From positions 270 to 64,269 of the forward strand of contig JBLMZW010000141.1 of assembly GCA_050259035.1 (NCBI GenBank): 64,000 bases of DNA, in the 5' to 3' direction. Each line of letters starts with the position of its first letter. Position 1 is the stretch's first letter. The position numbers were made by a program, and so were the translations under genes. Positions 15,272 through 50,358 of this stretch are shown piece by piece. The DNA comes from Chitinophagales bacterium (GTDB lineage Bacteria; Bacillota; Syntrophomonadia; Syntrophomonadales; DTU052). The notes beneath the pieces were generated by a model that was not told the origin of the DNA, made no database searches, and saw only the letters and a program-made list of their open reading frames with translations.

Positions 15272-15282
15272 TGCTGCCTCCT

Positions 15283-25623: not shown

Positions 25624-25779
25624 CTTAATGGTAAGTTATACATTCGCTGCTATTTAATATTTAATATAGAATATAATATTTTACAAAAAAATAACACGAA
25701 TAATGTCGGAAATTATAACGATAATTATTAAAGATGGAGATAAGAAGCAAAAATGATGGGCTATGGCTGAGTAATTTGT

Positions 25780-28413: not shown

Positions 28414-29979
28414 TTATGTGTCTTGGGTAGTATTCGACGGAATTTGAATACAGAACGAAACTCCCTGTTGCTCATTCTCCGCCCATACCGAGCTTTTGTT
28501 AAGATCGGCCACCCGCTTCAGAATTGCCAAACCTAACCCGATTTCACCGTCTTTTCCGGAACTGAAAGGTTCGAAAAGGTTAGGCAGCAGTTGCGGATCA
28601 ATAGAGTTGCCGTCATTCCAAACCCGCAGAATGACCATTTCGTCTATCCGGTTGGCGGTTATTCTGATCTTATTACAGGCATGGCGCAACTGGTTATCAA
28701 GCAGGTTTTCCAATCCCACCTCCCATTGCTGCTTATTACCTGTAACCAGGAGAGGCGGCAGTTTATAATCCCACTCCAGTTCCGGCCGGCGGGGTTGAAA
28801 TCGTTCCGCACAATCCGATATTATCTGGGACAGATCGAAAGAAGCAGTGTCCAATTGATGACTTGACAGATAATTGAGTTTGTTTAAATATAAGAGATCT
28901 TTAATACGACTCTCTAAACGCTCAGATTCCTTAATAATTACGTCAATACTGGCCTCCTGGGTACCCCGGGGATAAACCCCATCCAGAATAGACTGAGCGT
29001 AACTGTGAACTACCATCACTGGTGTCTTTAATTCGTGAGAAACGTTCTGTAGAAATGACCTCTGAGCCTCATCCTGGCTTATCAGTTTTTGGCGCATTTG
29101 TTCGAAGGCCCGGGCTAACCTGCCAATCTCGTCTCGCCGCACCATCTGAATGGGTTGATGCCAATCATGTTCAGCGATACGAGCAGCTTCTGTTTCCATC
29201 TGAATCAGGGGTCGGGATAAATATTTTGCCAATCCCATGGAGGGGAACCAGCTCAGTACTAAAAGAATGAACATAAGAACAAGCAGACGCCAATACATAG
29301 TTTTTACCAGACCGTTCCAATATGTGCCCCAGGAATATGTAACAGCATAAACCGGTTGATTTTCAATAATGCTCCTGCGAATAACATAGTAAAGTGTTTT
29401 GCCTCCTGTTTTGTGATAATACTCCTTAAAGATTTCTTTTTGTATCAAAGCTTCATTCTTTATAAGATTAAACGAGTCGATGGGAAGGTCATCGGGGCAA
29501 AGCGTTTTATTATCTCCAGAAAAGACCATATGCCGCACCAACTTGGAGTCTCCCGAAGTAACAGGGAGTACTGAAATATTTATATTATCCAGAGTTGACT
29601 TACCCAGAGCCAGACTGGTGGTAACAGTATATTGTTCCTGAAAAATAGTCGCCCGGTCAGGCCGGACAGAGGTTACAACACCGCCTGAGGCTTGAGCTAT
29701 ATATATGCCTTTCATAATATCGGATTCATTTTTAGTCGAGATTTTAATATTCGGTTTAACCGTAATCTTTACACTGCTTTGAGGTAGGTTGGTATCAGAG
29801 AAGGAATCAAGTTTAATTACTCCGACAGTTGGTTGAGAATCCCCCAGCATTTTAAAGACCTGTTTAGTGAAAAACTCGTTCAATGTCCAGGGAAGAAAAA
29901 GGACCAGCAGCATAAAAATTAGGCCGGTAATACCTACACACATTAACCAGATTTGAAAGGATAAGGGCATGTTCTTCAT
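28414..29979 (-). CDS. HAMP sensor histidine kinase, CssS-like
   Basis: MKNMPLSFQIW start, two TMs, HAMP, SHELKTPVMVVHSYAQSILDG, NLLDNQLRH, GLGLAI. Confidence 0.85.
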   Translation of the reverse strand: MKNMPLSFQIWLMCVGITGLIFMLLVLFLPWTLNEFFTKQVFKMLGDSQPTVGVIKLDSFSDTNLPQSSVKITVKPNIKISTKNESDIMKGIYIAQASGGVVTSVRPDRATIFQEQYTVTTSLALGKSTLDNINISVLPVTSGDSKLVRHMVFSGDNKTLCPDDLPIDSFNLIKNEALIQKEIFKEYYHKTGGKTLYYVIRRSIIENQPVYAVTYSWGTYWNGLVKTMYWRLLVLMFILLVLSWFPSMGLAKYLSRPLIQMETEAARIAEHDWHQPIQMVRRDEIGRLARAFEQMRQKLISQDEAQRSFLQNVSHELKTPVMVVHSYAQSILDGVYPRGTQEASIDVIIKESERLESRIKDLLYLNKLNYLSSHQLDTASFDLSQIISDCAERFQPRRPELEWDYKLPPLLVTGNKQQWEVGLENLLDNQLRHACNKIRITANRIDEMVILRVWNDGNSIDPQLLPNLFEPFSSGKDGEIGLGLAILKRVADLNKSSVWAENEQQGVSFCIQIPSNTTQDT

Positions 29980-30659
29980 AACTTCACCATCCTATAGCCA
30001 AAGCCGTAAATGGTTTCAATTCTCGCTCTGGGGATTTTCTTCCTGACCCTCCGGACAAGGTCATCGACCACCCGATCCGAGCCGAAATAATCACTACCCC
30101 AAACATTTTCTATTATTTGCTCTCTTCCCAGGGCCAGGCCCCGGTTGTTAACCAGATACCACACCAGATCAAATTCCTTCGAAGTCAGGTCGATTACTAT
30201 GCCGTCTTCATCACGAACTACCCGCTCAAACTCATATAGGGTGTAATAGGAGAAATCGATTGAATGAGCGGCCTTTGCCTGGAGTTCTGACTCGCCGTAT
30301 ACTCTCTGGAGAAGCTTACGGGAACGAATAACCAGTTCTTGCGGGAGAAAAGGCTTGGCCAGATAGTCTTCACTGCCCATCTCCAACCCGACGATCCGAT
30401 CTATATCAGCGTCCCGGGCTGAGATGAATATAACAGGAACCTGAGCTGATTCTATTTTGATCTCCCTAATCAATTGAAAACCGTCAATGCCAGGTAGCAT
30501 TATATCCAGAATCCATAAATGCGGCGGTCGCTTAATCCATGGTCTGGCATCAGCACCGTTTAGAAAGGACTTTACTTCCCAACTTTCCTTTTTCAGATAG
30601 GAAGTCAGTATTTCGTTCAGACTGGGTTCGTCTTCTACCAGATATACTATGTAATCCAT
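29976..30659 (-). CDS. OmpR-family response regulator, CssR-like
   Basis: VYLVEDE, PHLWILDIMLP, FISARD, GSDRVVDDLVRR, ETIYGFGY; AAGGAGG RBS before ATG 30659. Confidence 0.88.
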   Translation of the reverse strand: MDYIVYLVEDEPSLNEILTSYLKKESWEVKSFLNGADARPWIKRPPHLWILDIMLPGIDGFQLIREIKIESAQVPVIFISARDADIDRIVGLEMGSEDYLAKPFLPQELVIRSRKLLQRVYGESELQAKAAHSIDFSYYTLYEFERVVRDEDGIVIDLTSKEFDLVWYLVNNRGLALGREQIIENVWGSDYFGSDRVVDDLVRRVRKKIPRARIETIYGFGYRMVKL

Positions 30660-30757
30660 ACAGGGGTCCTCCTTCCCATTAGAAGGACGCAAACTTACGC
30701 CCCCTTAGAACGCTTAATAGACTTTTTGGGGATTTCGCCGTTTTGGGTTGATTCCCT

Positions 30758-30938: not shown

Positions 30939-32414
30939 TCACGACTTAACTGCCACATTCTTAAACACCTTGTCAAAGCGGCTGAGAACATCATCTATCA
31001 TCTCTTCCGTATAAGCCGCACTGGTATATAACCGGCTGCCAGCTAAAGTAACCAGACCTTCCGCCATATAAGCTGCGCCCATATGTTCCATCTCAGTTTT
31101 TCTTTCCGATGTTGCGCTTATAACCCCGGGTATGGTCCAGGGCTTAGACCAGTTAATAGCAAAATGCATAGTTCCCACCGTTTCTAAATGACAGATTGAT
31201 CCTTGGTTAAAGACCACAAACGGCAGTTTATATTTGTCGATCAGAGTTTGCAGCCCGGCGATTAGTTTGTCTGCCATCCTCCCGGCTTTAGCTGCTGCGT
31301 TGGTTCGTTCAATTTCACATAGTGTGTAATAACCAGCAACACAACTAAGGGGATTGGCTGCCATGGTGCCCCCAACCAAAGCCTTCTTATGTTTATCACC
31401 TGATCCCAGCCCGGCAGACAAGTATTTCATGCATTCTCTTTTTCCCCCCAGGCCACCGGCGCCAGGATAACCACCGGCTACGACCTTCCCAAAGATAGTG
31501 AGATCGGGGGATACATTGAAGTAGCCCTGCGCGCCGGACATTCCCAACCGGAATCCAGTTACCACTTCATCAAATATTAATAAAGCACCGTACTTACGAC
31601 ACAGTTTTTCGACGTTCTGGTTAAAATCAAAGTCCAACGGTCTGGTGCCGCTTTCCGGACCAACGGGTTCTATGAGCACCGCGGCTGTTCCACCCCTCAA
31701 CTGATTAAAACGGAGCTTTCTTTCTAGATCGCTTAAATCATTGGGGAAAAACTCCTGGGTATTCTTGAAACAGAACCGGGGTACCCCCTCTGCCTGAGTC
31801 CATTTAGAGCCCGGAATACGAATTCCGTAAGCCAGCTGGTCACTCCAGCCGTGATAGGCACCGCCCATTTTAATTATGTATTTATTGCCAGTAGCCAGAC
31901 GAGCTACTCTTATGGCTGCCATACAGGCTTCTGTTCCTGAACCAAGCATGCGAAACATTTCAACAGTCTTAAAATTATCAGAGATTTTTTTAGCCAGTTT
32001 ATATTCGAATTCGTGGAAAAGTCCGGTTGAAGGACCACAGTCATTTAACAATTCAAAAACTTTTTCTCGAACCTCGACGGGGTTGCTTCCCAGGACTGTT
32101 GGCCCGCCGGCCTGAAGAAAATCATAATAACGATTGCCGTCAATGTCGTATAAATACGCACCTTCAGCTTTTGTAAACACCAGAGGAAAAGGGTAATTAA
32201 AAGCCAGGTTGTGCTGTACTCCGCCAGGAATAATTTTTTGGGCGTCCGCAATTATTTCCTTGGACCGCGCACACTGCTTGTTAAAATATTCTTCTTCATA
32301 CTTTTTAAGCGCATCCGGACGGATTGTATATATTGGCATTCGAATTAACTGGTCAAGTTGTTTGGTTATTTTACCGGCATCGGGATATTTGGAAATCGCT
32401 GATACTTGATTCAT
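30939..32414 (-). CDS. Class III PLP aminotransferase (GSA-aminomutase-like fold)
   Basis: SGTEA, YHGWSD, FDEVVTGFR, FGKVVAGG (PLP Lys), GGTMAANP; GGAGG RBS before ATG 32414. Confidence 0.85.
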   Translation of the reverse strand: MNQVSAISKYPDAGKITKQLDQLIRMPIYTIRPDALKKYEEEYFNKQCARSKEIIADAQKIIPGGVQHNLAFNYPFPLVFTKAEGAYLYDIDGNRYYDFLQAGGPTVLGSNPVEVREKVFELLNDCGPSTGLFHEFEYKLAKKISDNFKTVEMFRMLGSGTEACMAAIRVARLATGNKYIIKMGGAYHGWSDQLAYGIRIPGSKWTQAEGVPRFCFKNTQEFFPNDLSDLERKLRFNQLRGGTAAVLIEPVGPESGTRPLDFDFNQNVEKLCRKYGALLIFDEVVTGFRLGMSGAQGYFNVSPDLTIFGKVVAGGYPGAGGLGGKRECMKYLSAGLGSGDKHKKALVGGTMAANPLSCVAGYYTLCEIERTNAAAKAGRMADKLIAGLQTLIDKYKLPFVVFNQGSICHLETVGTMHFAINWSKPWTIPGVISATSERKTEMEHMGAAYMAEGLVTLAGSRLYTSAAYTEEMIDDVLSRFDKVFKNVAVKS

Positions 32415-32445
32415 GATACCCCTCCATATTATTATAGAATGAGGT

Positions 32446-32492
32446 GAGTGATTGCTCACTCGTAATTTAAGAATAAACCATTATTTAGTCAA
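32446..32492 (-). promoter_or_regulatory. SigA promoter with downstream TetR-type operator
   Basis: TTGACT-N17-TAAATT on the minus strand, followed 2 nt later by the perfect inverted repeat GAGTGA-N4-TCACTC (32446-32461). Confidence 0.7.
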
Positions 32493-32550
32493 ACGTCAAT
32501 CTATATTTCACTGATAGAAAAATTAAGGAATTAAAAAGAGAGGGTAAGTT

Positions 32551-33204
32551 ATGAAACTAGATAAGGCAACTATATCTTTTATGAAACTTTCCTCGGAAAA
32601 ACAGAATCGAATAATGGAAGCGGCCATAACCGAATTTGCCGAGTATGGTTATAACAGCGCCAACATCAATAAAATAGCCCAAAATGCCGGGGTTAGCATA
32701 GGCTCTATGTACAAGTATTTCAACAGCAAAGAAGATTTATATTTAACAATTGTTCATCTGGGGGTTGAGACTCTTAAAGCAACTCTAGAGGACATTGTTA
32801 ACCGGGAGGCCGATCTTTTTACCCGGATAGAAATGATACTCCAGGCTATTCAGTCCTATTCCCGGCAGTATGTTGGTTTAACCAGATTGTATAATGAGAT
32901 GACTACTGAAAACCATTCCGAATTAACCTGGACCATTGTATCCGACATGGAAGGAATAACCGCCGAGTTGTATTCTTCTTTCATTAAAGGAGCCCAGGTG
33001 TCAGGTCAACTGAGACCGGATATTGACCCCAGATACTTTGCTTTCTTCCTGGACAACCTGTTTATATTACTGCAGTTTTCCTATGCCTGTGAATACTATA
33101 AAAACCGGTTGAAGATGTTTATCGGCCAGGAAGTTTTTGACCAGGATGAATTAATGGTGGATCAGTTAATGAAGTTTATCAGGGGAGCCTTCGGTCTGCA
33201 ATAG
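32551..33204 (+). CDS. TetR/AcrR family regulator
   Basis: IAQNAGVSIGSMYKYFNSKEDL HTH; divergent from the aminotransferase. Confidence 0.92.
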   Translation: MKLDKATISFMKLSSEKQNRIMEAAITEFAEYGYNSANINKIAQNAGVSIGSMYKYFNSKEDLYLTIVHLGVETLKATLEDIVNREADLFTRIEMILQAIQSYSRQYVGLTRLYNEMTTENHSELTWTIVSDMEGITAELYSSFIKGAQVSGQLRPDIDPRYFAFFLDNLFILLQFSYACEYYKNRLKMFIGQEVFDQDELMVDQLMKFIRGAFGLQ

Positions 33205-33331
33205 AATTATATTGTTGGCTGCCGACCTATATCATTAGTCGATAATAGGAAAAATTCTCAATAACACATCTAATAAATGCGCCATAATTATGGTCATCAA
33301 TCTAATGGCCAATATTCTTCTTCTGCCAGCC

Positions 33332-33385
33332 TTTAACAATTTCCCACAATTGCCTCATATTCTTTCCGCATTTTTTCCTTAAATT
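33332..33385 (+). promoter_or_regulatory. CssR-type direct-repeat array and -10 upstream of the hybrid ABC operon
   Basis: TTTAACA-ATTTCCCACA-ATTGCCTCATA-TTCTTTCCGCA then TAAATT; 32/45 ungapped identity to the reverse complement of 30774-30818 (hand count). Confidence 0.6.
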
Positions 33386-33535
33386 CATCTGGACAGGATA
33401 ACGGATAAGATCTGGGTACGAGCCCTATGGTCTGCTCCTTATTTAGAAATCTTAAGAAAATATTTAAAAAGAACCAAGATGAATTTTAAGATTACCATTT
33501 TATAGTGTGGCTTAGGGAAGGAATGGGGGAGAAAC

Positions 33536-34396
33536 ATGCGCTTAAGGTTAGAAAAATCAGAGAACCGGGCCGGGCTGCTTTTCGCTGCGCCCAGCCTGGC
33601 TGGTTTTTCCATATTCTACATAATACCTTTCATCTTTATAATCTATTACTCTCTTATCGATAATCCAGCTAGCCATCAATTTGTAGGCCTTGCCAACTAT
33701 TTCGCATTATTGAGCAATCCTATTTTTCTCAAAGCCGGATTTAATACAATCGTATTTACCATCATCGGAGTACCTCTCATAATGATTCTTTCTCTGGGTT
33801 TAGCATTATTACTAAACCGCAGTATGGTCGGCCGCGATTATTTTCGGGCGGCGTTCATATTACCTTTGATAGTCCCGGTAGCATCGGTGGTTTTAGTCTG
33901 GCAAGTGGTATTTAATTTTCACGGTTCATTGAATTCAGTTGTGGTTTTGCTGGGGCTTAATCCCGTAAATTGGATGAATACATCCTGGGCCAGAGTAATT
34001 GTTACTCTCTTTTATTTATGGAAAAACGCCGGATATAATATGATTCTCTTTCTTGCCGCCCTACAAAATATACCCCGGGAATTATACGAGGCAGCCTATA
34101 TAGACGGAGCAGGAAGCTGGCAGAGGCTGGTCAATATAACTCTGGTACATCTGATCCCCACCGGTTTTTTTGTTTTCATCATTTCCGTCATCAATTCATT
34201 TAAGGTTTTCCGGGAAGTATACCTGATTTCGGGGGATTATCCACATGAGAGCATCTACATGCTTCAACAATATATGAACAATATGTTCATGGCACTGGAT
34301 TATCAGAAACTATCCACCGCCGCAGTCATTACAGCGGCGCTGATTATAGGAATTGTATATGCCTTCTTTAAATTGGATCGAAATTTTAGGCGGTGA
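33536..34396 (+). CDS. Carbohydrate-type (CUT1) ABC permease
   Basis: FVGLANY, WKNAGYNM, EAA loop LYEAAYIDGA. Confidence 0.88.
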   Translation: MRLRLEKSENRAGLLFAAPSLAGFSIFYIIPFIFIIYYSLIDNPASHQFVGLANYFALLSNPIFLKAGFNTIVFTIIGVPLIMILSLGLALLLNRSMVGRDYFRAAFILPLIVPVASVVLVWQVVFNFHGSLNSVVVLLGLNPVNWMNTSWARVIVTLFYLWKNAGYNMILFLAALQNIPRELYEAAYIDGAGSWQRLVNITLVHLIPTGFFVFIISVINSFKVFREVYLISGDYPHESIYMLQQYMNNMFMALDYQKLSTAAVITAALIIGIVYAFFKLDRNFRR

Positions 34397-34402
34397 CAGA
34401 CG

Positions 34403-35293
34403 ATGGGTAAAAGACTGTTGGGGGCCAAACCTCCGGTCCAATATTATGTTCTAATTTTTGGTGCCTTGCTGGCTCTGGTTTTTATTACGCCCCTTATTTT
34501 GACTGTTACCAATTCTTTCATGAGTCTGGGGGAAATAATGAGTAATTACGGGATGATAATTCCCGATCAGGATAGTAATGAAATGGTTAATAACGGGTAT
34601 GCCAACCTCAAGTTGGTACCCGATATGGTTACTATCAGACAGTACTATCAGGTTCTCATCAAGGAATCCCAGTATCTGTTCATGTTTTGGAACTCGGTGT
34701 TTCTGGTGGCAATGATATTAATAGGACAGATACTGGTGGCAAGTACGGCGGCTTTCGCTTTCGCCAAAATTGATTTTCGTTGGAAAGAACCACTGTTCTT
34801 GATTTATATCTTAGTAATGTTGATGCCCTTTCAGGTTACCCTGGTACCGAATTATCTGGTGGCTGATTTCCTTGGGTTGATTGACAAACCCGGGAGCATT
34901 ATTTTACCTGGAATTTTCAGTGCCTTTGGGGTTTTTCTCTTAAGACAGTTCATGTCCTCCATACCTGATCAGTATATAGAAGCAGCCAGAATTGATGGTG
35001 CCGGATATTTTACGATATTTTATCGAATCATCCTACCCATGTCCAAGAACGCAATTGCCGCCCTGGCTATTCTGGTTTTTATGGATAACTGGAATATGGT
35101 TGAACAGCCGTTGATATTTCTGCAAAGCGTATTTAAACAACCCTTATCCTTGTTTTTATCTCAGGTCAACCTAAAGGAGATGGGCATCGCCTTTGCGGCG
35201 TCGACCATCTATATGATACCTGCCTTGCTGGTGTTCTTTTACGCGGAAAATTATTTTGTTGAGGGGATTCAGCACTCCGGATTAAAACTATAA
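34403..35293 (+). CDS. Carbohydrate-type (CUT1) ABC permease
   Basis: MPFQVTLVP, FGVFLLRQF, IEAARIDGA, WNMVEQP. Confidence 0.88.
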   Translation: MGKRLLGAKPPVQYYVLIFGALLALVFITPLILTVTNSFMSLGEIMSNYGMIIPDQDSNEMVNNGYANLKLVPDMVTIRQYYQVLIKESQYLFMFWNSVFLVAMILIGQILVASTAAFAFAKIDFRWKEPLFLIYILVMLMPFQVTLVPNYLVADFLGLIDKPGSIILPGIFSAFGVFLLRQFMSSIPDQYIEAARIDGAGYFTIFYRIILPMSKNAIAALAILVFMDNWNMVEQPLIFLQSVFKQPLSLFLSQVNLKEMGIAFAASTIYMIPALLVFFYAENYFVEGIQHSGLKL

Positions 35294-35312
35294 AAACATT
35301 GGAGGCCACACT

Positions 35313-36590
35313 ATGATTGACATTGACAACGAATTAGCGGCTGGAGATCAGAAGAAGACCATAGTTAAAAAACTGCTTTTAATCTTTTTTGCAGTAATGC
35401 TGTTGTTGACGTTTTTCTCCAATACCATTACCAATTACACTTTGCCGCGAGTTAAAGTCGAGTACCCGACCAGTGGCTCGCTAGTAAAAGAGATACTGGC
35501 CCAGGGGGAAGTATTGCCTAAAGACAGCCAGTGTGAATATACCAGTCTCAATACCGCCGTTAAAACGGTGAATGTAGAAGCCGGGGATGCAGTGGCCAAA
35601 GGACAGATAGTTATGACTCTGGATAACGCAGTGGCCATGACTCAGTATCAGGAGGAATTGGTTAATCTTAATAAATTGAAATTGGTTCTGGATAAATTAG
35701 AGCAGGAGGCTCCCGCTAATGATAATCAGACCTTGAAAAGGAAGCTGGCTGATTCACAACAGAAATATGAGGCGGCGAAGAGGAGTTATGACAGGGCGAA
35801 GTTGCTTTTCGACGCCGGGGCGGAATCCAAGGTGAACCTGGAGTCAGCCGAGGATCAAATGAAGACTCTGGAAAGGGAGTATCAACAGGCCCGTGAGGAT
35901 TATACACAGGGAATTAAAAGCAGTCGTCGTGAAATTCAGGATGCTCTCTATGACATTACAAGTCAGCAATTAAAGGTCAATAATCTGAAAAGGGAACTTG
36001 ATACCAAATACACTTTACGAGCTCAGTGCGATGGTTTGGTTAAGGAGATAAATTTTAGCCCGGGAACATTGACTAATAATGCTCAGCCTCTGTTTGTTAT
36101 TACCAATACAGCGAAAGGATTTGAGTTTAAGACCACTGTTGACAGTGATGCCGCCAATTATCTGACTAAGGGCGATGAAGTAAAGATCAGTCTAAAATCA
36201 AGCAATCGTGGCCTAAACGGCCTAATAGACAGGTTGGTCAGCAGTGGTGAAGGTAAGACCAATGTTTTTATAGACATCGACTGCAGCGATTTGACCGGGG
36301 GAGAGGCGGGCGAGGCTTTTATCAGCAAGAATATAGGATTCTACGATTGCTTGGTATCCAATTCAGCGCTGGGACAAGATTCATCGGGCAGTTTCGTATG
36401 GACCTTGGCGGAGCGTAAAGGGGCCTTTGGCAACCAATTATATTTGAGAAAGACCTCCGTTACCCTGGATAAATCAGATAATTCAAAGACTGCCGTTCGC
36501 AGTGGTTTGGACAATGAACAGAAAATAGTGGTTTCGGTTGAAGGCAACCGTCAATTGACTGATGGGTGCCGGGTTATGCTTCCCGATTAG
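35313..36590 (+). CDS. Membrane fusion (periplasmic adaptor, HlyD/MacA-like) protein
   Basis: Single N-terminal TM (LLTFFSNTI..LPRV), lipoyl half-motifs V.AGDAVAKGQ and LRAQCDGLV, long alpha-hairpin, beta-barrel/MP tail. Confidence 0.8.
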   Translation: MIDIDNELAAGDQKKTIVKKLLLIFFAVMLLLTFFSNTITNYTLPRVKVEYPTSGSLVKEILAQGEVLPKDSQCEYTSLNTAVKTVNVEAGDAVAKGQIVMTLDNAVAMTQYQEELVNLNKLKLVLDKLEQEAPANDNQTLKRKLADSQQKYEAAKRSYDRAKLLFDAGAESKVNLESAEDQMKTLEREYQQAREDYTQGIKSSRREIQDALYDITSQQLKVNNLKRELDTKYTLRAQCDGLVKEINFSPGTLTNNAQPLFVITNTAKGFEFKTTVDSDAANYLTKGDEVKISLKSSNRGLNGLIDRLVSSGEGKTNVFIDIDCSDLTGGEAGEAFISKNIGFYDCLVSNSALGQDSSGSFVWTLAERKGAFGNQLYLRKTSVTLDKSDNSKTAVRSGLDNEQKIVVSVEGNRQLTDGCRVMLPD

Positions 36591-36614
36591 TGTCGGAAAA
36601 CAGGGGATGATTTC

Positions 36615-38003
36615 ATGAATAAACACAGACGGATAATAATGTTGGCTGGAATACTTATTTTAATTCTTTCCTTTTGTTTGGAGGAGTCAATCCTGGAACA
36701 GGTGGTTGACAACAATGGATTCGTTGGATTGAACAAGACCATGATAAAGGCCAGCTCCAGACCAAATGTTGATAAGAACCAGGCGCTAACCCTTGATGAT
36801 ATTAGTTATTTAGACAAGAAGGCAAAGGGTGGCAGCATTACATATCTGACCAGGCAGGATAGTGAGGCTGGTGGGAATTGTAACTGGACCCGGGCCAGAA
36901 TCATTGGGACCAACTATATGTATCCCCGGTTCCGTGATCTGCATATGGAATCCGGTGGGATGTGGACCGAGGAAGCTGAACGGGAAGGCCTGAGAATGGC
37001 TGTAATTAATAATGATCTGGCATGGCAGTTGTTTAAATCAACTGAAGTGGTGGGAATGGATGTAAATATTTTAGGAAGCACTTTTAAAGTTGTTGGGGTA
37101 ATGGGGAAAAACGAAAGCCTTATCGCCAGGTTAGCCGATGATGGCGTGCCAGAAATACTAATACCGGGACCGGTTTATTATAGTTTGGCAAAAAATCCGG
37201 AAATTCTGGAGATCCAAATATCCGGTGAAGAATCTGGCTACATAAACGAACTGCTGACGGGAATGGGCAAGGACTTATCTTGCTTCTCAATCAACGACTA
37301 CCATGATACTCAACCCCTAATGGGACAGGTTCCGCAAATACAGGTTTTTCTTATTGGTTTATTGTGTATTGTTGCGTTACTGCGTTGGATAAGAAAGGAG
37401 TTTCGACAGCTTGTTAAATTGTTGAAAAAGGACAGCTGCAATGATTACTTTGCAGTGGTCTTAAAAAGACGATGGCGCGAGGCAGCTGCTTTTTTATTGA
37501 TAACAGGCGTTCTGATTGCGACCATCATTTTTATTTGGAGCAACATCCATTTTCAAATTTATGTACCATCCCGCTACATACCGGATGATCTGATAAATAT
37601 TCAATACTACACGGAGGTGATTAAACAGGACATAGCTAACGGACGGACGGCAGCGGAGTTTTACCGGCCAACAACGGACTTGGAACTGGGAATTTGCCAA
37701 AATATCAATTTCTTTCTTTATTTTATTAGCTGGCCGTTAAGTCTGGTACTGCTTTTGTACGGCCTTTCCCGGCGACGGTGGATTCCTAAATATGCCCTTA
37801 AAACTATGGTGTACACAGCTGGAACTATGATTTTATCCCTGATAATCGTGGCCTTAATAGGCTTCTTCACGGGGTCAAAATCCGTATTAAACCTTCATGC
37901 TTTTATTGTCCTTTGGTGTTTTATTGGTTTGAAGCTGATATATATTTTTGTCAGTTCTTCGAGAGAAAATGGACATCTAACGGAATTAATTTCATTTAAA
38001 TGA
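36615..38003 (+). CDS. MacB-like (MacB_PCD) membrane protein
   Basis: TM, then extracellular domain with IIGTN, AVINNDLAWQLF and FKVVGV, then further TMs; no ATPase domain. Confidence 0.7.
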   Translation: MNKHRRIIMLAGILILILSFCLEESILEQVVDNNGFVGLNKTMIKASSRPNVDKNQALTLDDISYLDKKAKGGSITYLTRQDSEAGGNCNWTRARIIGTNYMYPRFRDLHMESGGMWTEEAEREGLRMAVINNDLAWQLFKSTEVVGMDVNILGSTFKVVGVMGKNESLIARLADDGVPEILIPGPVYYSLAKNPEILEIQISGEESGYINELLTGMGKDLSCFSINDYHDTQPLMGQVPQIQVFLIGLLCIVALLRWIRKEFRQLVKLLKKDSCNDYFAVVLKRRWREAAAFLLITGVLIATIIFIWSNIHFQIYVPSRYIPDDLINIQYYTEVIKQDIANGRTAAEFYRPTTDLELGICQNINFFLYFISWPLSLVLLLYGLSRRRWIPKYALKTMVYTAGTMILSLIIVALIGFFTGSKSVLNLHAFIVLWCFIGLKLIYIFVSSSRENGHLTELISFK

Positions 38004-38016
38004 GAGGTGGAAGAGG

Positions 38017-40308
38017 TTGCAGGTAAGTAAGAGATATTTAAGCATGTTACTAATTGCCCTATTGATGATGACCAGCCTGACCGGATGCGCCGGAACTGGG
38101 AAAAAGGCGAAAACAACCGATGAAACGAATAAACAGACCAACGTTTACTACCAGGAGAACAAAATAAGTCTTCCAGATTTTGAAATGGTCTATAACGCAG
38201 AACTTGATAAGAACGGCCAACTGGTGGTTTATGATAGCGGTCAGAATCCCAAGTACGTCTTCCTTAACAGTAAAGGCAAGCCGGTTCGAGAAATCAAGTG
38301 TCAGATGCAGAGCCCGGGAGTTCCTGATGGCAACGTATTCGCTTTAGACAATAATAATAACCTGTACCAACTGCAGCAAATCGATGTTTATGACCCCAGT
38401 GGCACTCAAATCAAGGAGTATATCAAACGTTTGCAGGTATATGACCCAGCAGGGAAGCCGGCAGGGACAACCCTGGAGTTGGGAAAGGTATCCGGAACCT
38501 TGAACAGCATGAATTTACATGCTTCTAGTATGGCAGCGGATGATAAAGGCCGATTGTACATTCTCTATTATCGAGGCGATATCGAAATATTGAATTCTAA
38601 AACCGGCAAGGTTATTAAAACCATTACCGGGACCAAGTATCGGTTCATAGATATTGACAAGCAGGGCAATATACTGGCTATTGCGCGGTCGGAAGACGGA
38701 AACTGCTTAATCAAATTAGATAAGAACGGTAAAACCATTTGGAGGCGCAACTTAAAAATCAAAACGGCTGTTATGGGGTTTAAATACAACCGCTACGATG
38801 GATCCAGCTATATTACCGATTATTCCGGAGTCAAGAAATATGACGGTGAGGGTAAATATGTTGGAGAAATCCTGAATTTTCGGGAGACCAGTATTATTCC
38901 ATCGGAATCTTATATGACCAGTCTTAATGTTGATGCAACGAACAACATTTACGCTACCATAATGTACAATGGAGGGTCATCAGATAAACCCTTCGGTATA
39001 TTCAAGTACACACCGCAGAAAGGTGCTAAACATCGAACCGGGCCTGTGAAAACCATTACTGTGGGAACCGCGGATTCTGACGATTTTCTGGAAACTGCGG
39101 CTAGAAAGTATGAAAAAGACCACCCTGGGATGAAGGTTGAAATCAAGGATTACTCCGGAGGCAAAACCAGGGGTTCTGATGAAGAACGTTATCAGAATTA
39201 TGTAAAAACCTTAAACACCGAGATCCTGACCGGGAAAGGACCGGACATTATCTCGGTTCAGGGACTTCCCTATAACAAATACATAGATAAGAAGGTTTTT
39301 ATAGATTTAAATAGTTTTATAAAGAAGGATAAAAGCTTCCATCGCCAGGAGTATTATACCAACATCATTAAGGCTTGCGAAACTAAAGGTAAGTTGTACT
39401 CCATGCCAGTATGTTTTTGCCTTCCGGTTATTATGGCAGATGAGGACCTGCTGAAGAAATCAGGGGTGACCATAGACGAAGAAAACTGGACCTGGTCTGA
39501 TTTTTATAGAGTCTCCAAACAATTGACCAAAGACCCTAACAACGATGGTAATACCGACATTTATGCTTTGCCCAAAACTGATGCCCAGAGACTCTTTAAG
39601 AATATGTTAGCCAGTGATTATCGGCGATTTATTAATGAAGACAAAAAGCAGGCCAGTATCAATTCCAAACAGTTTGTTCAGCTATTAAATCAGTATAAAG
39701 AAATAAACGATAAAATGATGAATCCCCGAATTGATGACGAGAATCTCTTATTCTCCGGGAGCCGAGGAACCATTGCTTTTAAACCCCAGGAATACTATGG
39801 TGGTGATCTTACTGTTGCGAAAGCCGAGTTGGGTCAGAACACTGAAGCATTGGCCATGCCACAAGGTGAATCCACAGGAGACAATTGCTTCGAAGCGTTT
39901 AGATTAGCCATTAACAGTAATTCAAAGGCTAAGAATGAAGCCTGGGAGTTTCTTAAGTACATTACCGCCGCCAAGCAACAAAAATCACTTCAATTGCCGG
40001 GTTTATGTATCAACAAGGAGGCTCAGAACCTGGCCTTTGAAGAGCAAGCCAAGAACAATTCAGGTTCAACGAGCATCAGTATCGGTAGCGATAAAGGAAT
40101 GAAGATAATGAATGTTGAACCTTTGACCCCGGAACGAATCAGGCAAACTAAGCATCTAATAGCACGGTTAAATCGATGCAACAATAATAACCCGCAAATT
40201 GAGAAAATGATGAAAACCGAAATATCAGCCTTTTTAAAGGGAGAGAAGTCCTCTAAAGAAATCGCAAAGATTCTGCAGAACAAGATAAACATCTATTTAA
40301 ACGAATAG
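38017..40308 (+). CDS. Large lipoprotein: beta-propeller-like N-domain fused to ABC solute-binding domain (family 1)
   Basis: Lipobox LTGC; repeated D..G.LY beta-strand blades; GKGPDII, GKLYSMP, WTWSDF, AWEFLKY. Confidence 0.8.
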   Translation: MQVSKRYLSMLLIALLMMTSLTGCAGTGKKAKTTDETNKQTNVYYQENKISLPDFEMVYNAELDKNGQLVVYDSGQNPKYVFLNSKGKPVREIKCQMQSPGVPDGNVFALDNNNNLYQLQQIDVYDPSGTQIKEYIKRLQVYDPAGKPAGTTLELGKVSGTLNSMNLHASSMAADDKGRLYILYYRGDIEILNSKTGKVIKTITGTKYRFIDIDKQGNILAIARSEDGNCLIKLDKNGKTIWRRNLKIKTAVMGFKYNRYDGSSYITDYSGVKKYDGEGKYVGEILNFRETSIIPSESYMTSLNVDATNNIYATIMYNGGSSDKPFGIFKYTPQKGAKHRTGPVKTITVGTADSDDFLETAARKYEKDHPGMKVEIKDYSGGKTRGSDEERYQNYVKTLNTEILTGKGPDIISVQGLPYNKYIDKKVFIDLNSFIKKDKSFHRQEYYTNIIKACETKGKLYSMPVCFCLPVIMADEDLLKKSGVTIDEENWTWSDFYRVSKQLTKDPNNDGNTDIYALPKTDAQRLFKNMLASDYRRFINEDKKQASINSKQFVQLLNQYKEINDKMMNPRIDDENLLFSGSRGTIAFKPQEYYGGDLTVAKAELGQNTEALAMPQGESTGDNCFEAFRLAINSNSKAKNEAWEFLKYITAAKQQKSLQLPGLCINKEAQNLAFEEQAKNNSGSTSISIGSDKGMKIMNVEPLTPERIRQTKHLIARLNRCNNNNPQIEKMMKTEISAFLKGEKSSKEIAKILQNKINIYLNE

Positions 40309-40315
40309 CACTGAG

Positions 40316-40346
40316 CGAACAGGGGGGAACCCTCCTCCCTGTTCGT
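40316..40346 (+). other. Intra-operon stem-loop between SBP and ATPase genes
   Basis: GCGAACAGGGGGG...CCTCCCTGTTCGT with no U-tract; likely an mRNA stabiliser or partial terminator. Confidence 0.55.
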
Positions 40347-40364
40347 TGGAAGGGAAGATGGGCA

Positions 40365-41465
40365 ATGGCCGGAATATGCCTTACTGGTATGAACAAGGTT
40401 TATCCCAATGGGTTTCATGCAGTTAAGGATGTAGATCTTGACATTGGTGACCATGAATTTGTCGTACTATTAGGGCCTTCAGGGTGTGGCAAAACAACTA
40501 TCCTAAGAATGATTGCCGGTCTCGAGAGGATAACTTCGGGGCAGCTCTTTATTGGGGAAAAACTGATGAACCTGGTTGAAGCTAAAGACCGGGATGTAGC
40601 TATGGTCTTTCAAAATTTCGCCCTTTATCCTCATATGACTGTATTTGAAAACCTGGCATTTGCCCTAAAGATTCGTAAAATGACCAAATCGGCAATTACT
40701 GATAAAGTGCATAACGTAGCCAAAACGCTGGATATGGAACAACTCTTGCCGATGAAACCCAGGCAGCTTTCGGGAGGGCAAATGCAAAGGGTGGCCCTGG
40801 GGCGCGCCATGGTTCGAGAACCTAGTGTGTTCCTTATGGATGAACCACTCTCCAACCTGGATATGCAGCTTAGAGTACATATGCGGGCAGAATTGACAAA
40901 ACTGCATGAGAGACTTCAGACTACCTTTGTTTATGTTACTCATGACCAGATGGAAGCGATGACGATGGGCAGTTTAATAGTGGTTATGAATGAAGGTGTA
41001 ATCCAGCAAATAGGCACTCCGATGGAGGTCTATGAAAGACCAAAGAATATGTTCGTAGCCGGGTTTATCGGCAGCCCTTCCATAAACTTTATAGAAGGAA
41101 AGTTAAATATCGATCAACATAACTTATATATTGATTTCGTGAATCATCGGCTCAACATACCGAAGAACAGACTTGGCAATAAACTCTATGAGTACGTCGG
41201 GAATTCAGTCATATTAGGCATCAGACCGGAAGATATATCTTGTTTTATCAGTCCTGAAGACTTAGAGGATAATTACTTCAACGCTGAAGTAGAGAGGATT
41301 GAGCCAATAGGGCATGAATCCTACTTGCATTTTACCCTGGATCACTTCCCTATGGTAGCAAGGATTGATAGAAGTATGGCTTTAGGCCCTGGGGGTACCA
41401 TCCGGGTTGGTCTTGATATGTCACGATTACACATTTTTGACCCGAATAGTCAAGAAGCACTTTAA
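40365..41465 (+). CDS. MalK/MsmX/UgpC-type ABC ATPase with TOBE domains
   Basis: GPSGCGKTT, LSGGQ, MDEPLSNLD, YVTHDQ, FVAGFIGSP, LGIRPED. Confidence 0.92.
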   Translation: MAGICLTGMNKVYPNGFHAVKDVDLDIGDHEFVVLLGPSGCGKTTILRMIAGLERITSGQLFIGEKLMNLVEAKDRDVAMVFQNFALYPHMTVFENLAFALKIRKMTKSAITDKVHNVAKTLDMEQLLPMKPRQLSGGQMQRVALGRAMVREPSVFLMDEPLSNLDMQLRVHMRAELTKLHERLQTTFVYVTHDQMEAMTMGSLIVVMNEGVIQQIGTPMEVYERPKNMFVAGFIGSPSINFIEGKLNIDQHNLYIDFVNHRLNIPKNRLGNKLYEYVGNSVILGIRPEDISCFISPEDLEDNYFNAEVERIEPIGHESYLHFTLDHFPMVARIDRSMALGPGGTIRVGLDMSRLHIFDPNSQEAL

Positions 41466-41527: not shown

Positions 41528-41576
41528 AGGAAGATAGCTATGATAACCAAGTTTCAAGCTATCTTCTTCTTCTTTC
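41528..41576 (+). terminator. Terminator after the ABC operon
   Basis: GAAGATAGCT...AGCTATCTTC hairpin followed by a T-rich run. Confidence 0.55.
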
Positions 41577-41673: not shown

Positions 41674-41747
41674 TTGACTAAACCACACTATAAGTTTATA
41701 CTGGGGTCAAATAATATAATACAATATAAAAATGTACCAAAGTAAAA
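41674..41747 (+). promoter_or_regulatory. SigA promoter with two TetR-type operators
   Basis: TTGACT-N17-TATACT; TTATACTGGGGTCAAA (41696-41711) and ATGTACCAAAGTAAAA (41732-41747) resemble TTATACTTAAGTCTAA at 44097. Confidence 0.6.
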
Positions 41748-41807
41748 CGAGGTGGTGGTAATTATTAGGCTTTAACAAAAACTAGGAAAATGGGGGGAGG
41801 CGACAAT

Positions 41808-43025
41808 ATGTTATTGAGACCACAGCCGGTTGATAAACTGCAGTATTCCAGGGTTTTGGAAATCGCGGATGAAATCTGGATGATTGAAGGATATGTATCC
41901 TATGACTTTTTTTCAGATAACCCATCTTCAAACGTCTTTATCATGCGAGACCGGGAAATGGTTTTACTCGTCGATTCAGGACTTTATCCCTACTACCGTG
42001 AAATCATCTTAAAAATATTAAACAAGTGTAAGAAGAATGGAGCCAAAGAACTGGTATTGGTATTAACCCAGGGCCATTTTGACCATGCAGGTAATAACGA
42101 TGTTATTTTGGAAGCGGGGTATGACAAGGTCCGTTTCATCTTCGCTGAAGAAGAAATGAAAACCGTCAATTTTGCACAGTATTTTTATGATGACATAGTG
42201 GCACAGGAAAAGTATTACGACCCTTATCTTATCTTCCCGCCAACAGAGATGCCGGGTGTGCTCTTTCATGCTCTTACCCCAGTTTCTAAAGACGCGGTTC
42301 GGACTATTATGAGACTCGTCGGTACAGCTATGGTGATGGGGGTTGAAACTTTAGCTGATCGGGCGGAATTACTTACGTCAAAAACAAAAGTAATTAAAAA
42401 GTTTGGAGAAATTGAACTTGCTGGCTGGGAAGTGGGCCGGTTTTTCTTAATTCATGATGGTGGGCATACCCCGGGACACATTTCAATATACGATCCACTT
42501 AATAAATTCTTGATGATGGCGGACACTTCGCAGGAAATTAATCCGCCTTTCCTGGATGCCAGCATGCAAAAACTTCTAAGCTCTGTCAAACAGTATAAAT
42601 CCTTAGCCGAACAGGGATTTATAGAAACGGTAACCGATTCCCACAGAAGTTCTCTATGGTTGTCGAAAGTAATAGAAAAAGTTGTTGAGAAAGTGGATGC
42701 GGAGCCGCTTAGCCGGCTGCAATTATTGGATTGTATTTATGGGCAGAAAGATGTACTTGGATTCCTGAATATCTGGGAGGAGTATTATCAAGCAATAATT
42801 AACGAGACTTTAGCGAGTCTTACGGTAATTGGTGAAGGAACAGCTTCTCAGGTTGCCGCTGAATTTAAGAAAACTACTAACCGGGCAGCAAAAATGAAAG
42901 CAGCATTGTCTTGGCCCAATCTGCCTAACCGTCTTGAAACCATGGTATGCATTGTGTTGAGAGAAGCCAACATCCCTTACCGCATTGAGAACGACCTGGT
43001 CGTTTTTAGAGCACCCGAAAAATAA
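41808..43025 (+). CDS. Metallo-beta-lactamase-fold hydrolase (variant QxHxDH)
   Basis: LLVDSG, TQGHFDH, GHTPGH, MAD, DSH; GGAGG RBS before ATG 41808. Confidence 0.8.
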   Translation: MLLRPQPVDKLQYSRVLEIADEIWMIEGYVSYDFFSDNPSSNVFIMRDREMVLLVDSGLYPYYREIILKILNKCKKNGAKELVLVLTQGHFDHAGNNDVILEAGYDKVRFIFAEEEMKTVNFAQYFYDDIVAQEKYYDPYLIFPPTEMPGVLFHALTPVSKDAVRTIMRLVGTAMVMGVETLADRAELLTSKTKVIKKFGEIELAGWEVGRFFLIHDGGHTPGHISIYDPLNKFLMMADTSQEINPPFLDASMQKLLSSVKQYKSLAEQGFIETVTDSHRSSLWLSKVIEKVVEKVDAEPLSRLQLLDCIYGQKDVLGFLNIWEEYYQAIINETLASLTVIGEGTASQVAAEFKKTTNRAAKMKAALSWPNLPNRLETMVCIVLREANIPYRIENDLVVFRAPEK

Positions 43026-43037
43026 GGAGGTAGAACT

Positions 43038-44000
43038 ATGAATGTTCGAGAAGAATTTGCGCATCTTTCACGCCAGGAACTGTTGGATCGGGTGTATGAA
43101 ATCGCAAGCAAACTGGAGATCGAATCGGGCAGCTGTTCCCAAAGTACGGTAGGAGCTATTCATCAGGTAGTTGGAATTGATGAAAACGTTGTGAAAGCGA
43201 GTACTTCTTTATGCGGAGGCATAGCTATGCAGGGGGCCGGAAACTGCGGCGCGGTTTTAGGCGGAATAATGGCTTTAGATTGTCTATTTGGCCGATCCTG
43301 TAATGATTTTCTGGCCAGCAAAACAAAACCTCTGGTTGCTGCGCAAAAACCGGCTAAAAAGTTTTTTGAGGCCTTTTATCAGAAATACCGTACCATTGAA
43401 TGTCGCGAAATAATGAGACAGTTCTTCGGACGTTCATTTTACTTTGAAGACATAGATGACAGCAGGAAAGCATTGAAGTTAGGAGCACATTCAGCCCAGG
43501 GCTGTGCCAGTGTAGTCGGTAATGCTGCTCGCTTTGTTTTGGAAACAATTTTAGATACAGAAGTAACGGATTCCTCGAATAAAAGAGATGATTTATTCCC
43601 CGGCACTCCTGGTCAGCCAGTACAGGACCCTTCGGTACTGATTTCAGCAGTCCGAAATGCAATTATTCAAGTCAAAATGGGTTCTGAAATGAACGGGATA
43701 TTTCAGTACATAATCGAAGATTATCCCGATTTCGCATTTTATATCGGATTTGACAGAGGAAAAGGCTATGTGTCGGAAGGAACCGCGGAAAAATCAAACG
43801 TTGTCATCGGTGTTACTTCAACCGATTTAATTCAAATGCTAACAGGCGCACTTAGCGCTACAGACGCTTTTGCGCAAGGAAAAATAGCTATTACCGGGGA
43901 TATTTCTTATGTCCTAAATCTTGAAAGTCTTTTTTCCAATGCTAAGAATGTCCCAGTTACGGAAGAACCGGAAAGCTTCGGGTGCTGCGGAGGTAGTTGA
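43038..44000 (+). CDS. C_GCAxxG_C_C putative redox protein fused to an SCP2 lipid-binding domain
   Basis: SCSQS, LCGG, NCGAVLGG, IECREI, GC motifs; C-terminal MLTGALSATDAFAQGKIAITGD (SCP2); GCCGGS tail. Confidence 0.75.
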   Translation: MNVREEFAHLSRQELLDRVYEIASKLEIESGSCSQSTVGAIHQVVGIDENVVKASTSLCGGIAMQGAGNCGAVLGGIMALDCLFGRSCNDFLASKTKPLVAAQKPAKKFFEAFYQKYRTIECREIMRQFFGRSFYFEDIDDSRKALKLGAHSAQGCASVVGNAARFVLETILDTEVTDSSNKRDDLFPGTPGQPVQDPSVLISAVRNAIIQVKMGSEMNGIFQYIIEDYPDFAFYIGFDRGKGYVSEGTAEKSNVVIGVTSTDLIQMLTGALSATDAFAQGKIAITGDISYVLNLESLFSNAKNVPVTEEPESFGCCGGS

Positions 44001-44096
44001 ACAGTTATTAGGGTGAGAATTGATGTTGAACCGGTAGTTCTGATCATTTAGACGATTGGAGTTATTGATGAATGTGATAGAATGACATCAAGATTC

Positions 44097-44112
44097 TTAT
44101 ACTTAAGTCTAA
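44097..44112. promoter_or_regulatory. Putative TetR operator (autoregulation)
   Basis: Near-palindrome TTATACT-TA-AGTCTAA upstream of the TetR gene. Confidence 0.55.
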
Positions 44113-44147
44113 TATGTGAGAATTTCTGAGATATGGAGTAGTTAATA

Positions 44148-50343: not shown

Positions 50344-50358
50344 ATAATTTTAGAAGGG

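Follow-up and report, generated by a model that had tools for sequence, protein, structure and literature searches.

Does an operon that combines the parts of a sugar importer with those of an export or extraction apparatus encode a single unit, and what could such a unit be for? The question is raised by six genes at positions 33536-41465 of the window, by which we mean the whole 64,000-nucleotide stretch of DNA analysed (positions 270 to 64,269 of contig JBLMZW010000141.1, assembly GCA_050259035.1, assigned to a Chitinophagales bacterium). In the textbook division, type I ATP-binding cassette (ABC) importers that depend on a substrate-binding protein (SBP) take compounds in, whereas mechanotransducers of the MacB/membrane-fusion protein (MFP) kind push them out or off the membrane. 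A first-pass annotation, made from the sequence alone, had nevertheless read the six genes as one composite envelope machine. We found that the gene set is a conserved unit of spore-forming, Gram-positive Bacillota and no chance neighbourhood, and that its neighbours are of an envelope-stress kind rather than a catabolic kind. Since its relatives lie beside cell-wall and vancomycin-resistance genes and not beside sugar-use genes, the module may be an envelope surveillance or defence device, probably an unstudied one, and not a nutritional sugar importer. We put the probability of this tentative reading at roughly 40%.

The operon consists of the following elements:

33536..34396, + strand: permease P1, CUT1/UgpA-MalF type (BPD_transp_1 3.8e-14; EAA loop; six predicted transmembrane helices)
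34403..35293, + strand: permease P2, CUT1/UgpE-MalG type (BPD_transp_1 2.9e-15; EAA loop; conserved first extracytoplasmic loop)
35313..36590, + strand: membrane-fusion protein MFP, HlyD/RND-adaptor type (HlyD_3 2.7e-09; HlyD_D23 1.2e-07; Biotin_lipoyl_2)
36615..38003, + strand: MacB-like membrane protein of 462 aa (MacB_PCD 2e-12 as the sole recognisable domain; no FtsX match)
38017..40308, + strand: propeller-SBP lipoprotein of 763 aa (signal peptide; lipobox LTGC; SBP_bac_1 1.1e-20 at residues 356-656)
40365..41465, + strand: MalK/UgpC-type ABC ATPase (ABC_tran 2.7e-31; OB_MalK 1.2e-12; TOBE_2; C-terminal OB/TOBE regulatory domain)
41530..41576, + strand: terminator-like hairpin after the ATPase gene, read by eye (10-bp perfect stem, 17-nt loop, T-rich tail)

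The six open reading frames (ORFs) share one strand, are separated by gaps of only 6, 19, 24, 13 and 56 nt, and form one tight operon whose parts, as listed by the first-pass annotation, were confirmed. The MFP and MacB-like genes sit between the permease genes and the SBP and ATPase genes; therefore, these are not two abutting operons. The hairpin at 41530-41576 likely marks the operon end, and it is absent from the terminator scan because the scan permits loops of 3-8 nt. A second, G+C-rich hairpin lies at 40322-40338 (+) in the 56-nt gap between the receptor and ATPase genes; it is terminator-like by the scan, has a weak T tail, and may lower the ATPase transcript level. The public gene call for the MacB-like protein begins 8 codons downstream of ours (P0001, 454 aa).

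In its core the operon resembles the CUT1 importers (MalFGK2-MalE, UgpAEC-UgpB), with two BPD_transp_1 permeases, a MalK/UgpC-type ATPase with OB/TOBE domains and an SBP_bac_1 receptor. The EAA---G motif, which is the docking site for MalK-type ATPases, is readable in the translations of both permeases, and the ATPase scores 465 bits against the UgpC subfamily (cut-off 432). No other ABC ATPase is encoded by the 46 ORFs of the window. By contrast, the permeases score far below every curated equivalog cut-off: the best NCBIfam match of P1 is UgpA, with 94.7 bits against a cut-off of 335, and that of P2 is UgpE, with 89.3 bits against 297. The module further differs from these importers in its obligate MFP partner, its propeller-SBP fusion, and the lack of catabolic genes or a sugar regulator. 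The MFP itself carries, by sequence, the features of a HlyD/RND adaptor: an N-terminal hydrophobic membrane anchor, lipoyl and barrel motifs, and about 130 aa between these motifs that likely form a long alpha-hairpin. Its match to TIGR01730 (7.9e-23, 80.9 bits) is below the cut-off of 94.9.

Is this arrangement inherited as a whole? A profile of the propeller-SBP family, built from an alignment without P0007 and P0009, yielded 78 loci from species-representative genomes (designated below by L numbers). In these loci 3209 ORFs of at least 80 aa were called, searched with the window proteins and with a hidden Markov model (HMM) of the MacB-like family, and then clustered. The module, defined by a gene of the MFP or MacB-like cluster, was present in 57 of the 78 loci. 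An MFP cluster gene occurred in 55 loci, together with P1 in 50, P2 in 49 and the SBP in all 55, and the misses were mostly at contig ends. The MacB-like gene was found in 41 of these 55 loci. Every MacB-like gene (43/43) directly adjoined an MFP gene, and the module-type permeases accompanied the pair wherever the contig extended that far; this count includes L027 and L039, where the clustering missed a truncated or masked MFP ORF that the protein search shows.

The gene order P1-P2-MFP-MacB-like-SBP recurs in Clostridia (Herbinix, Anaerovirgula, Geosporobacter, Anaerosolibacter and many metagenome-assembled genomes), in Desulfotomaculia and relatives (Desulforamulus, Desulfotruncus, Desulfocucumis, Ca. 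Formimonas, Desulfosporosinus), and also in Dethiobacter, Paenibacillus and Cohnella. Maledivibacter (L012) and Paramaledivibacter (L034) have the same genes with the receptor gene or genes before P1. The 14 loci that lack the MacB-like gene all belong to Paenibacillus or Cohnella, and they retain either SBP(s)-P1-P2-MFP or P1-P2-MFP-SBP. The permeases linked to an MFP constitute a distinct and highly conserved group: linked P1 proteins matched the window P1 at 7e-91 to 8e-114, whereas eight plainly unlinked CUT1 permeases in the same loci matched only at 2e-12 to 1e-51. The permeases of L048 and L069 score like linked ones, and their contigs stop before any MFP could appear. Across classes, the mean column identity was 58% for linked P1 and 60% for linked P2, against 29% for the SBP and 28% for the MacB-like protein.

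These observations bear directly on the simplest alternative, in which a CUT1 importer and an MFP/MacB-like pair served by an unlinked MacB-type ATPase are merely two unrelated neighbours. In its favour, sharing of an orphan ATPase is common among CUT1 systems of Firmicutes, as stated in PMC9601137. A complex prediction for P1 (residues 10-279), P2 (11-288) and the MacB-like protein (1-452) with family alignments gave no verdict, with a score of 0.00 in two runs made without controls; that it did not show contact is evidence neither way. Nevertheless, the genes are interleaved within the operon, the MacB-like gene and the MFP gene co-occur without exception across classes, the MFP keeps the company of P1, P2 and the SBP even in the 14 loci without a MacB-like gene, and the permeases linked to it are a group of their own. 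We consider mere adjacency very improbable. The co-occurrence of MFP, MacB-like and permease genes, on which the composite-machine idea had been made to depend, thus clearly holds.

Several lineage-specific variants were seen in the same loci. In L008 (1698-4019) and L009 (3818-6151), an ORF of about 775 aa with an N-terminal S-layer-homology (SLH) domain lies between the P1 and P2 genes. In L069, the propeller (313 aa) and the SBP (378 aa) are encoded as consecutive separate ORFs at 11279-13486 beside a fused copy at 7178-9385, which is either a natural split or a frameshift. The Paenibacillus/Cohnella form without the MacB-like gene has, in eight loci, the layout of response regulator (RR), histidine kinase (HK), a 400-aa beta-rich protein, one to three SBP genes, P1, P2 and MFP (L045, L047, L049, L053, L060, L063, L070 and L072; for example L049:4567-9457), and in four of these eight loci an N-acetylmuramoyl-L-alanine amidase-polysaccharide deacetylase fusion precedes the RR. 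The 400-aa protein (cluster c16, before the SBP genes in these eight Paenibacillus/Cohnella loci) was considered as a free homologue of the propeller, but the comparison did not show this, with an hhalign probability of 10.5% (E 0.0029) and no match to the propeller HMM. Another protein, of 711-737 aa and without a Pfam match (cluster c13), follows the module in 10 Paenibacillus loci (L033, L038, L041, L042, L053, L055, L056, L061, L073 and L074; for example L041:11395-13557), and in seven of them it separates the SBP gene from the RR and HK genes; by hhalign, it has no relation to the propeller.

The AlphaFold2 (AF2) model of the MacB-like protein, calculated from an 80-sequence alignment, has a pLDDT of 93.1 and comprises a first transmembrane helix (residues 2-33), an alpha/beta outer domain (41-228), a long second helix (229-274), and further helices at 287-311, 353-385, 391-419 and 427-451, which makes six transmembrane helices in all. 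An outer loop of 41 residues (312-352) bears the family motif LYIPxxYIPxELID, and the cytoplasmic loops of the model are just 13 and 5 residues long. The outer domain matches the fold of YknZ (5f9q, TMt 0.75) and MacB (3ftj, 0.73), and also 9qgy_M, with scores in the range 0.73-0.75 and root-mean-square deviations (rmsd) of 3.1-4.1 Å. Over its full length, the protein compares with MacB, LolC/E, HrtB and YtrF at TM-scores of only 0.27-0.40 (rmsd 13-28 Å for MacB and LolC/E). MacB_PCD was matched by 80 of 80 family members, and the FtsX domain (PF02687) by none of the 80 at E up to 0.01, although the first four helices may be distantly similar to an FtsX-type membrane domain. The family alignment contains 23 positions with a conservation of at least 80%; leaving aside the start Met, 21 of the remaining 22 fall within the outer domain (PCD), the second helix or loop 312-352. 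An exhaustive profile search collected 149 family representatives (50% identity clusters) at E up to 1e-30, and a word-based search had returned only 4 relatives, which reflects its limited sensitivity. The best 150 representatives are 217-519 aa long and therefore too short for a fused nucleotide-binding domain (NBD), in agreement with the claim that this protein has no ATPase of its own.

With the pumps MacAB(-TolC), S. pneumoniae Spr0693-0695 (5xu1) and B. subtilis YknXYZ, the module thus shares an MFP and a membrane protein with the MacB PCD fold. It differs from them in the absence of an FtsX domain, in having six rather than four predicted transmembrane helices, in the lack of a fused or adjacent MacB/LolD-type ATPase, and in that its MacB-like gene is embedded in a CUT1 importer operon. 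Compared with MacB/type VII ABC systems at large (MacB, LolCDE, FtsEX, BceAB, HrtBA), it possesses the extracytoplasmic core domain between the first and second helices, but neither the FtsX-type four-helix membrane domain nor an NBD of the MacB/LolD type.

What, then, powers the apparatus? Twelve of the 57 loci, and the window, have an ATPase gene embedded in the module, and these ATPases match the MalK/UgpC-type ATPase of the window at 2e-109 to 3e-120. In Desulfotomaculia the gene is placed between the MacB-like and SBP genes; the remaining module loci have no embedded ATPase. A MacB-type ATPase lies beside the module only in L024 among the 57 loci, where it is accompanied by its own FtsX permease. 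Because only the MalK type is ever embedded, the module appears to be energised in the importer manner only. Part-lists of an importer and of a MacB/MFP system are therefore inherited as one unit across three Bacillota classes, with nothing but an importer-type ATPase for power. Should the proteins indeed assemble into one machine, its architecture would be new, and it might couple ATP hydrolysis to work outside the membrane in a new way.

A rival explanation takes the MacB and MFP parts at face value: the system would be an exporter or extractor that moves a lipid-linked glycan, a glycolipid or a peptide outward, with the importer-fold transmembrane domains and the MalK-type ATPase as motor and the SBP as acceptor or regulator. 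To our knowledge, MFP and MacB-PCD parts occur elsewhere only in systems for export or extraction, to which the fold matches above also point; the operons of L008 and L009 include a gene for an SLH-domain wall protein; and the pocket of the closest characterised SBP, described below, is blocked. On the other hand, we know of no type I importer-fold system that exports, no biosynthetic genes for an exported product recur beside the module, and the MacB-like protein is missing in 14 of 55 loci. Such an outward pump is quite unlikely in our view. Within the envelope-device reading itself, the analysis favours neither import for disposal nor extraction or expulsion.

The receptor provides a link to a system that has been studied experimentally. 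Its AF2 model (pLDDT 87.7) contains an all-beta N-terminal domain (residues 43-335) in a region, residues 1-345, that no Pfam family covers. Compared with ESM Atlas structures, this domain resembles six-bladed NHL/SBBP propellers (TM-score 0.71-0.74), and a profile search of the PDB matched the NHL repeat protein 6d69 at 1.1e-6. The receptor is thus divided as follows:

38017..40308, + strand, residues ~40-345: propeller
38017..40308, + strand, residues ~346-763: CUT1-type SBP, ending in the family-invariant ...LNE (invariant terminal Glu)

The closest solved relative of the SBP part is CbpC (7X0O) of C. thermocellum, with a profile E of 1.2e-58 against 3.4e-29 for the next chain and Foldseek rank 1 (TMt 0.78). 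Even a single-sequence phmmer comparison gave 1.5e-26, and the two proteins have in common a GxGPD motif and the C-terminal ...LNE. The next fold neighbours are SBPs for cycloalternan, arabino-oligosaccharides and rhamnogalacturonan. According to the literature, the cbpC operon has four genes, Cthe_2125 (msdC1), Cthe_2126 (msdC2), the unnamed Cthe_2127 and Cthe_2128 (cbpC), also listed as Clo1313_2783-2786, and the gene list in the Figure 1 legend for this transporter C includes an efflux-adaptor gene, 'acra'. We infer that Cthe_2127 is this acrA-like MFP gene, in which case transporter C would be a four-gene form of the module. Like the window operon, it has a CbpC-like SBP, two msd permease genes and an 'acra' gene in its list. 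It differs in having only four genes, without a MacB-like gene or an embedded ATPase, and in that CbpC (a 438-aa chain) carries no propeller; in this it resembles the 14 Paenibacillus/Cohnella loci that lack the MacB-like gene. The window operon has the same P1-P2-MFP-SBP core with the CbpC-like SBP, and we regard it as a member of a conserved module of the transporter C/CbpC type with an extra MacB-like subunit. The statement of the first-pass annotation that such gene sets lack a functional study is thus not quite accurate: work on transporter C exists, in which it was presumed to carry cellodextrins, and its results conflict.

The published data bear on a further alternative, in which the module would genuinely import carbohydrate, namely a large or wall-trapped oligosaccharide, with the MFP and MacB-like protein as a funnel through the thick Gram-positive wall and the propeller for extra glycan capture. 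Three results in PMC9601137 speak against sugar import: CbpC showed no binding of glucose, cellobiose to cellopentaose (G2-G5) or xylose by isothermal titration calorimetry or nuclear magnetic resonance (ITC/NMR), an extra loop obstructs its inter-domain pocket, and disruption of transporter C left growth on glucose, cellobiose and Avicel normal. By contrast, sub-micromolar affinities of CbpC for glucose and cellodextrins are attributed to Nataf 2009 in the table of a review (PMC11212667), and transcripts of the cbpC operon are stated to increase on xylose, glucose or fructose in the C. thermocellum literature. Further support for the importer comes from the CUT1 permeases with their EAA loops, the MalK-type ATPase with its regulatory TOBE domain, and the fold of the SBP, which after CbpC is nearest to oligosaccharide binders. 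In 6 of 57 loci, the module is followed by DUF624/YesL-type genes, which are commonly part of ABC operons for sugars.

The gene neighbourhood allowed us to weigh this alternative further. For each cluster of non-core genes within three genes of the module, one representative was taken from the 55 loci; 147 of the 155 representatives were scanned, and the eight dropped ones were fragments of core genes or overlapping spurious ORFs. Most of these neighbours are unrelated housekeeping genes. No glycosidase, sugar kinase or LacI/ROK-type regulator recurred among the 147 representatives of the 55 loci, and the single GH43, GH18-SLH and LacI genes in the census belong to other adjacent systems. In the window, likewise, no glycosidase, sugar kinase or LacI/ROK/AraC-type sugar regulator was found in the operon or its direct neighbours, as the first-pass annotation had said. 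The nearest glycosidase-like ORF, at 25780-27249 (-), encodes a DUF4832 protein with a weak Glyco_hydro_42 match (3.7e-4) and belongs to a Pel-like polysaccharide cluster 6 kb away. The usual company of a CUT1 importer is therefore missing, and the regulators that do occur are of two-component (including VanRS), BlaI or TetR types. Taken together with the published CbpC negatives, the census supports the earlier claim that this is not an ordinary sugar importer, and we hold the oligosaccharide importer to be doubtful.

Cell-wall and antibiotic-type genes did occur near the module. Among the 57 loci, an S11 DD-carboxypeptidase was found in 12, a D-Ala-D-Lac-type ligase in 7, VanW and VanX in 3 each, BlaI in 4, a BlaR1-type M56 protein in 3, and the amidase-deacetylase fusion in 4; VanZ, alanine racemase, LytR-CpsA-Psr, YkuD and Amidase_3 appeared as singletons of the census. 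The clearest case is Ca. Formimonas warabiya (L016), whose gene order is VanR, VanS, DD-carboxypeptidase, a 116-aa ORF, P1, P2, MFP, MacB-like, ATPase, SBP, VanW, VanH, ligase and VanX. Its VanR (430.6 vs 350), VanS (408.3 vs 400) and VanI-type ligase (732 vs 700) all score above the curated cut-offs, so that the features of a van-type glycopeptide resistance cluster, absent from the 64-kb window, are present in this relative. L016 (840-14965), L018, L022 and L025 are vanI-type D-Ala-D-Lac clusters with a serine (S11) DD-carboxypeptidase in which the six-gene ABC module splits VanRS from the ligase-side van genes; in L018, L022 and L025 the ligase gene comes directly after the SBP gene. In Herbinix (L037), the module is followed by DUF624, RR, HK, DD-carboxypeptidase, VanH, ligase, VanX and MurF. 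In L044, an S11 gene lies slightly upstream of P1, with a short ORF between.

Because relatives are embedded in genuine D-Ala-D-Lac glycopeptide-resistance clusters, the module is a candidate accessory determinant of, or sensor for, wall-active antibiotics. In a more specific form of the envelope-device reading, the importer-fold motor (a MalK dimer with P1 and P2), triggered by a receptor with a plugged sugar pocket, would drive or gate a MacB-like/MFP apparatus at the outer side of the membrane that senses or strips glycopeptide-type antibiotics, or the damaged wall precursors that result from them, and would not import food; we regard this specific mechanism as doubtful. In this form, it would represent a new class of antibiotic-defence ABC module, which would have entered the vanI-type clusters of Desulfotomaculia and become connected to transducers of the BlaR1 type in other Clostridia.

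The second recurrent context is regulatory. In 36 of 55 loci, both an RR and an HK lay no more than three genes from the module; in 40 of 55, at least one of them did. In Maledivibacter halophilus (L012:4916-12112), two paralogous fusions of 1113 and 1114 aa each join a BlaR1 M56 domain to the propeller (residues 400-675; HMM E 1e-38 to 1e-40) and the SBP. Their genes, with that of a BlaI-type repressor between them, immediately precede P1-P2-MFP-MacB-like, and the locus encodes no separate SBP. The M56 membrane protease domain here bears the propeller-SBP where BlaR1/MecR1 has its penicillin-binding sensor domain, and the gene between both fusion copies is a Penicillinase_R repressor gene; the window differs in having a plain lipoprotein receptor and a TetR gene. 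The L012 fusions imply that the receptor unit can act as a signalling input. BlaI and M56 genes also directly follow the SBP gene in L020, L024, L035 and L043. The regulators near the window operon are:

32551..33204, + strand: TetR-family regulator (TetR_N 2.4e-14), 331 nt upstream of the operon
28414..30692, - strand: OmpR-type response regulator and HAMP histidine kinase (Pfam), divergent and two genes from the operon

The TetR protein is probably a local repressor. It is not conserved in relatives, since a similar gene lies near the module in only one related locus (L007), and no inverted repeat or operator candidate was found in a search of 32400-33560. An aminotransferase gene and the TetR gene separate the two-component system from the operon, which it possibly regulates. 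Its RR is generic by NCBIfam (VanR 145.9 bits against a cut-off of 350), and its similarity to the module-linked systems is likewise generic (RR about 140 bits, HK 89 bits). It was therefore rejected as their orthologue and is not counted in the module.

Such contexts raise the possibility that the module is mainly a trigger transporter, in which the receptor and the ABC core report occupancy or flux to an adjacent kinase or BlaR1-type transducer and transport is secondary. The frequency of adjacent RR-HK pairs, the M56-propeller-SBP fusions beside BlaI, and the BlaI and M56 genes right after the SBP gene are in line with this. Bce-type transporters act as co-sensors, which is an established precedent, but one that would apply here by analogy. 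Like BceAB-BceRS, the module is an ABC system with a large extracytoplasmic domain beside a two-component system, and some relatives occur in wall-antibiotic resistance clusters; unlike it, the module has neither a BceB-type 10-helix double-FtsX permease nor a BceA-type ATPase, and has an SBP and importer-fold permeases instead. The comparison is thus one of function, resting on gene context and not on homology. Against this reading, three complete loci (L014, L017 and L044) lack a two-component system within three genes, those of the other loci are not orthologous to one another, the closest regulator in the window is TetR, and the MFP and MacB-like protein would be superfluous for a sensor. 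We therefore judge a predominantly signalling role to be unlikely.

How could an envelope surveillance or defence device of this kind work? In the model we propose, a MalK-type ATPase dimer would drive the two CUT1-fold permeases via their EAA loops, and the membrane-tethered receptor, with its NHL-type propeller and SBP, would dock on them. The receptor may recognise a glycan-bearing ligand at the interface of wall and membrane, for instance a fragment or precursor of peptidoglycan, or a glycopeptide-type antibiotic attached to such a molecule, and recognition would trigger ATP hydrolysis in the importer-type core. The MFP and the MacB-like protein could build an extracytoplasmic chamber for collecting the ligand or stripping it off the membrane surface. 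The purpose would be surveillance of, or defence against, wall damage, for which glycopeptide-type antibiotics provide the clearest lead. The module would be wired to stress-type regulators: in the window TetR and perhaps the nearby two-component system, and elsewhere two-component systems including VanRS, or BlaI/BlaR1. The assembly, ligand class, direction and defensive role in this scheme are what we infer from the gene content, operon structure, conservation, folds, ATPase type and neighbours.

A number of observations weigh against the defensive reading. Only 21 of 57 loci have at least one of the seven wall/antibiotic-type gene clusters counted within 10 kb, and many of the 21 are related Desulfotomaculia, which leaves few independent associations, perhaps 3-4; most van-linked loci belong to a single clade, with two or three others besides. 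Nor do the adjacent two-component systems form one orthologous pair; they are heterogeneous. In the window, no van, penicillin-binding protein or BlaR gene was found near the operon or among the 46 scanned ORFs, and the two-component system is generic and two genes off, with TetR as the nearest regulator. Every core component is CUT1-like, the DUF624 neighbours fit sugar transport, and we know of no SBP-dependent type I system that does other than import. The tabulated CbpC affinities and the sugar-responsive cbpC transcripts point the same way. Of the composite envelope machine originally proposed, the genetic unit and the non-nutritional context are thus supported, whereas its being one machine, the powering of the MacB-like part and the direction of transport are not established.

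Every part of the module belongs to a known family; the combination as a unit is apparently undescribed, and there is a real chance that it is a new kind of machine. Full-text literature searches, including one on van clusters with ABC transporters, returned no description of the hybrid combination as a unit. The only papers retrieved with the Cthe locus tags were on C. thermocellum and dealt with the operon in terms of sugar transport, and the van surveys and the vanI paper do not describe the module or its layout, with one survey mentioning 'ABC transporters' in passing. Public annotation labels these proteins sugar transporters, and the receptor is named 'multiple sugar transport system substrate-binding protein' or 'extracellular solute-binding protein'. 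Despite the negative data, one member has been listed as a cellodextrin transporter of a cellulolytic organism used in industry.

The remaining surroundings of the operon in the window have other apparent themes. Upstream, 14594-27249 (-) carries DUF4956, VTC and CotH-kinase genes followed by a Pel-like exopolysaccharide set with PelG, a DUF3492-GT1 glycosyltransferase, a DUF2194 protein, a 729-aa epimerase fusion and the DUF4832/weak GH42-like protein mentioned above. This cluster is not conserved beside the module elsewhere, except for the DUF4956 and VTC pair in L023. Just 3' of the operon, 41790-46731 (+) encodes a metallo-beta-lactamase-fold protein, a C_GCAxxG-SCP2 fusion, a second TetR, and a pyridine-nucleotide-disulfide oxidoreductase with a rhodanese domain. 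To judge from a promoter-like site at 41674-41702, these genes may form a separate transcription unit. Further downstream, 47190-49478 (+) encodes a protein of 762 aa that combines five fibronectin type III domains with two copper-amine-oxidase N-terminal-like domains, and it is followed at 49713-51420 by a pair consisting of an extracytoplasmic function (ECF) sigma factor and a zf-HC2/DUF4349 anti-sigma factor.

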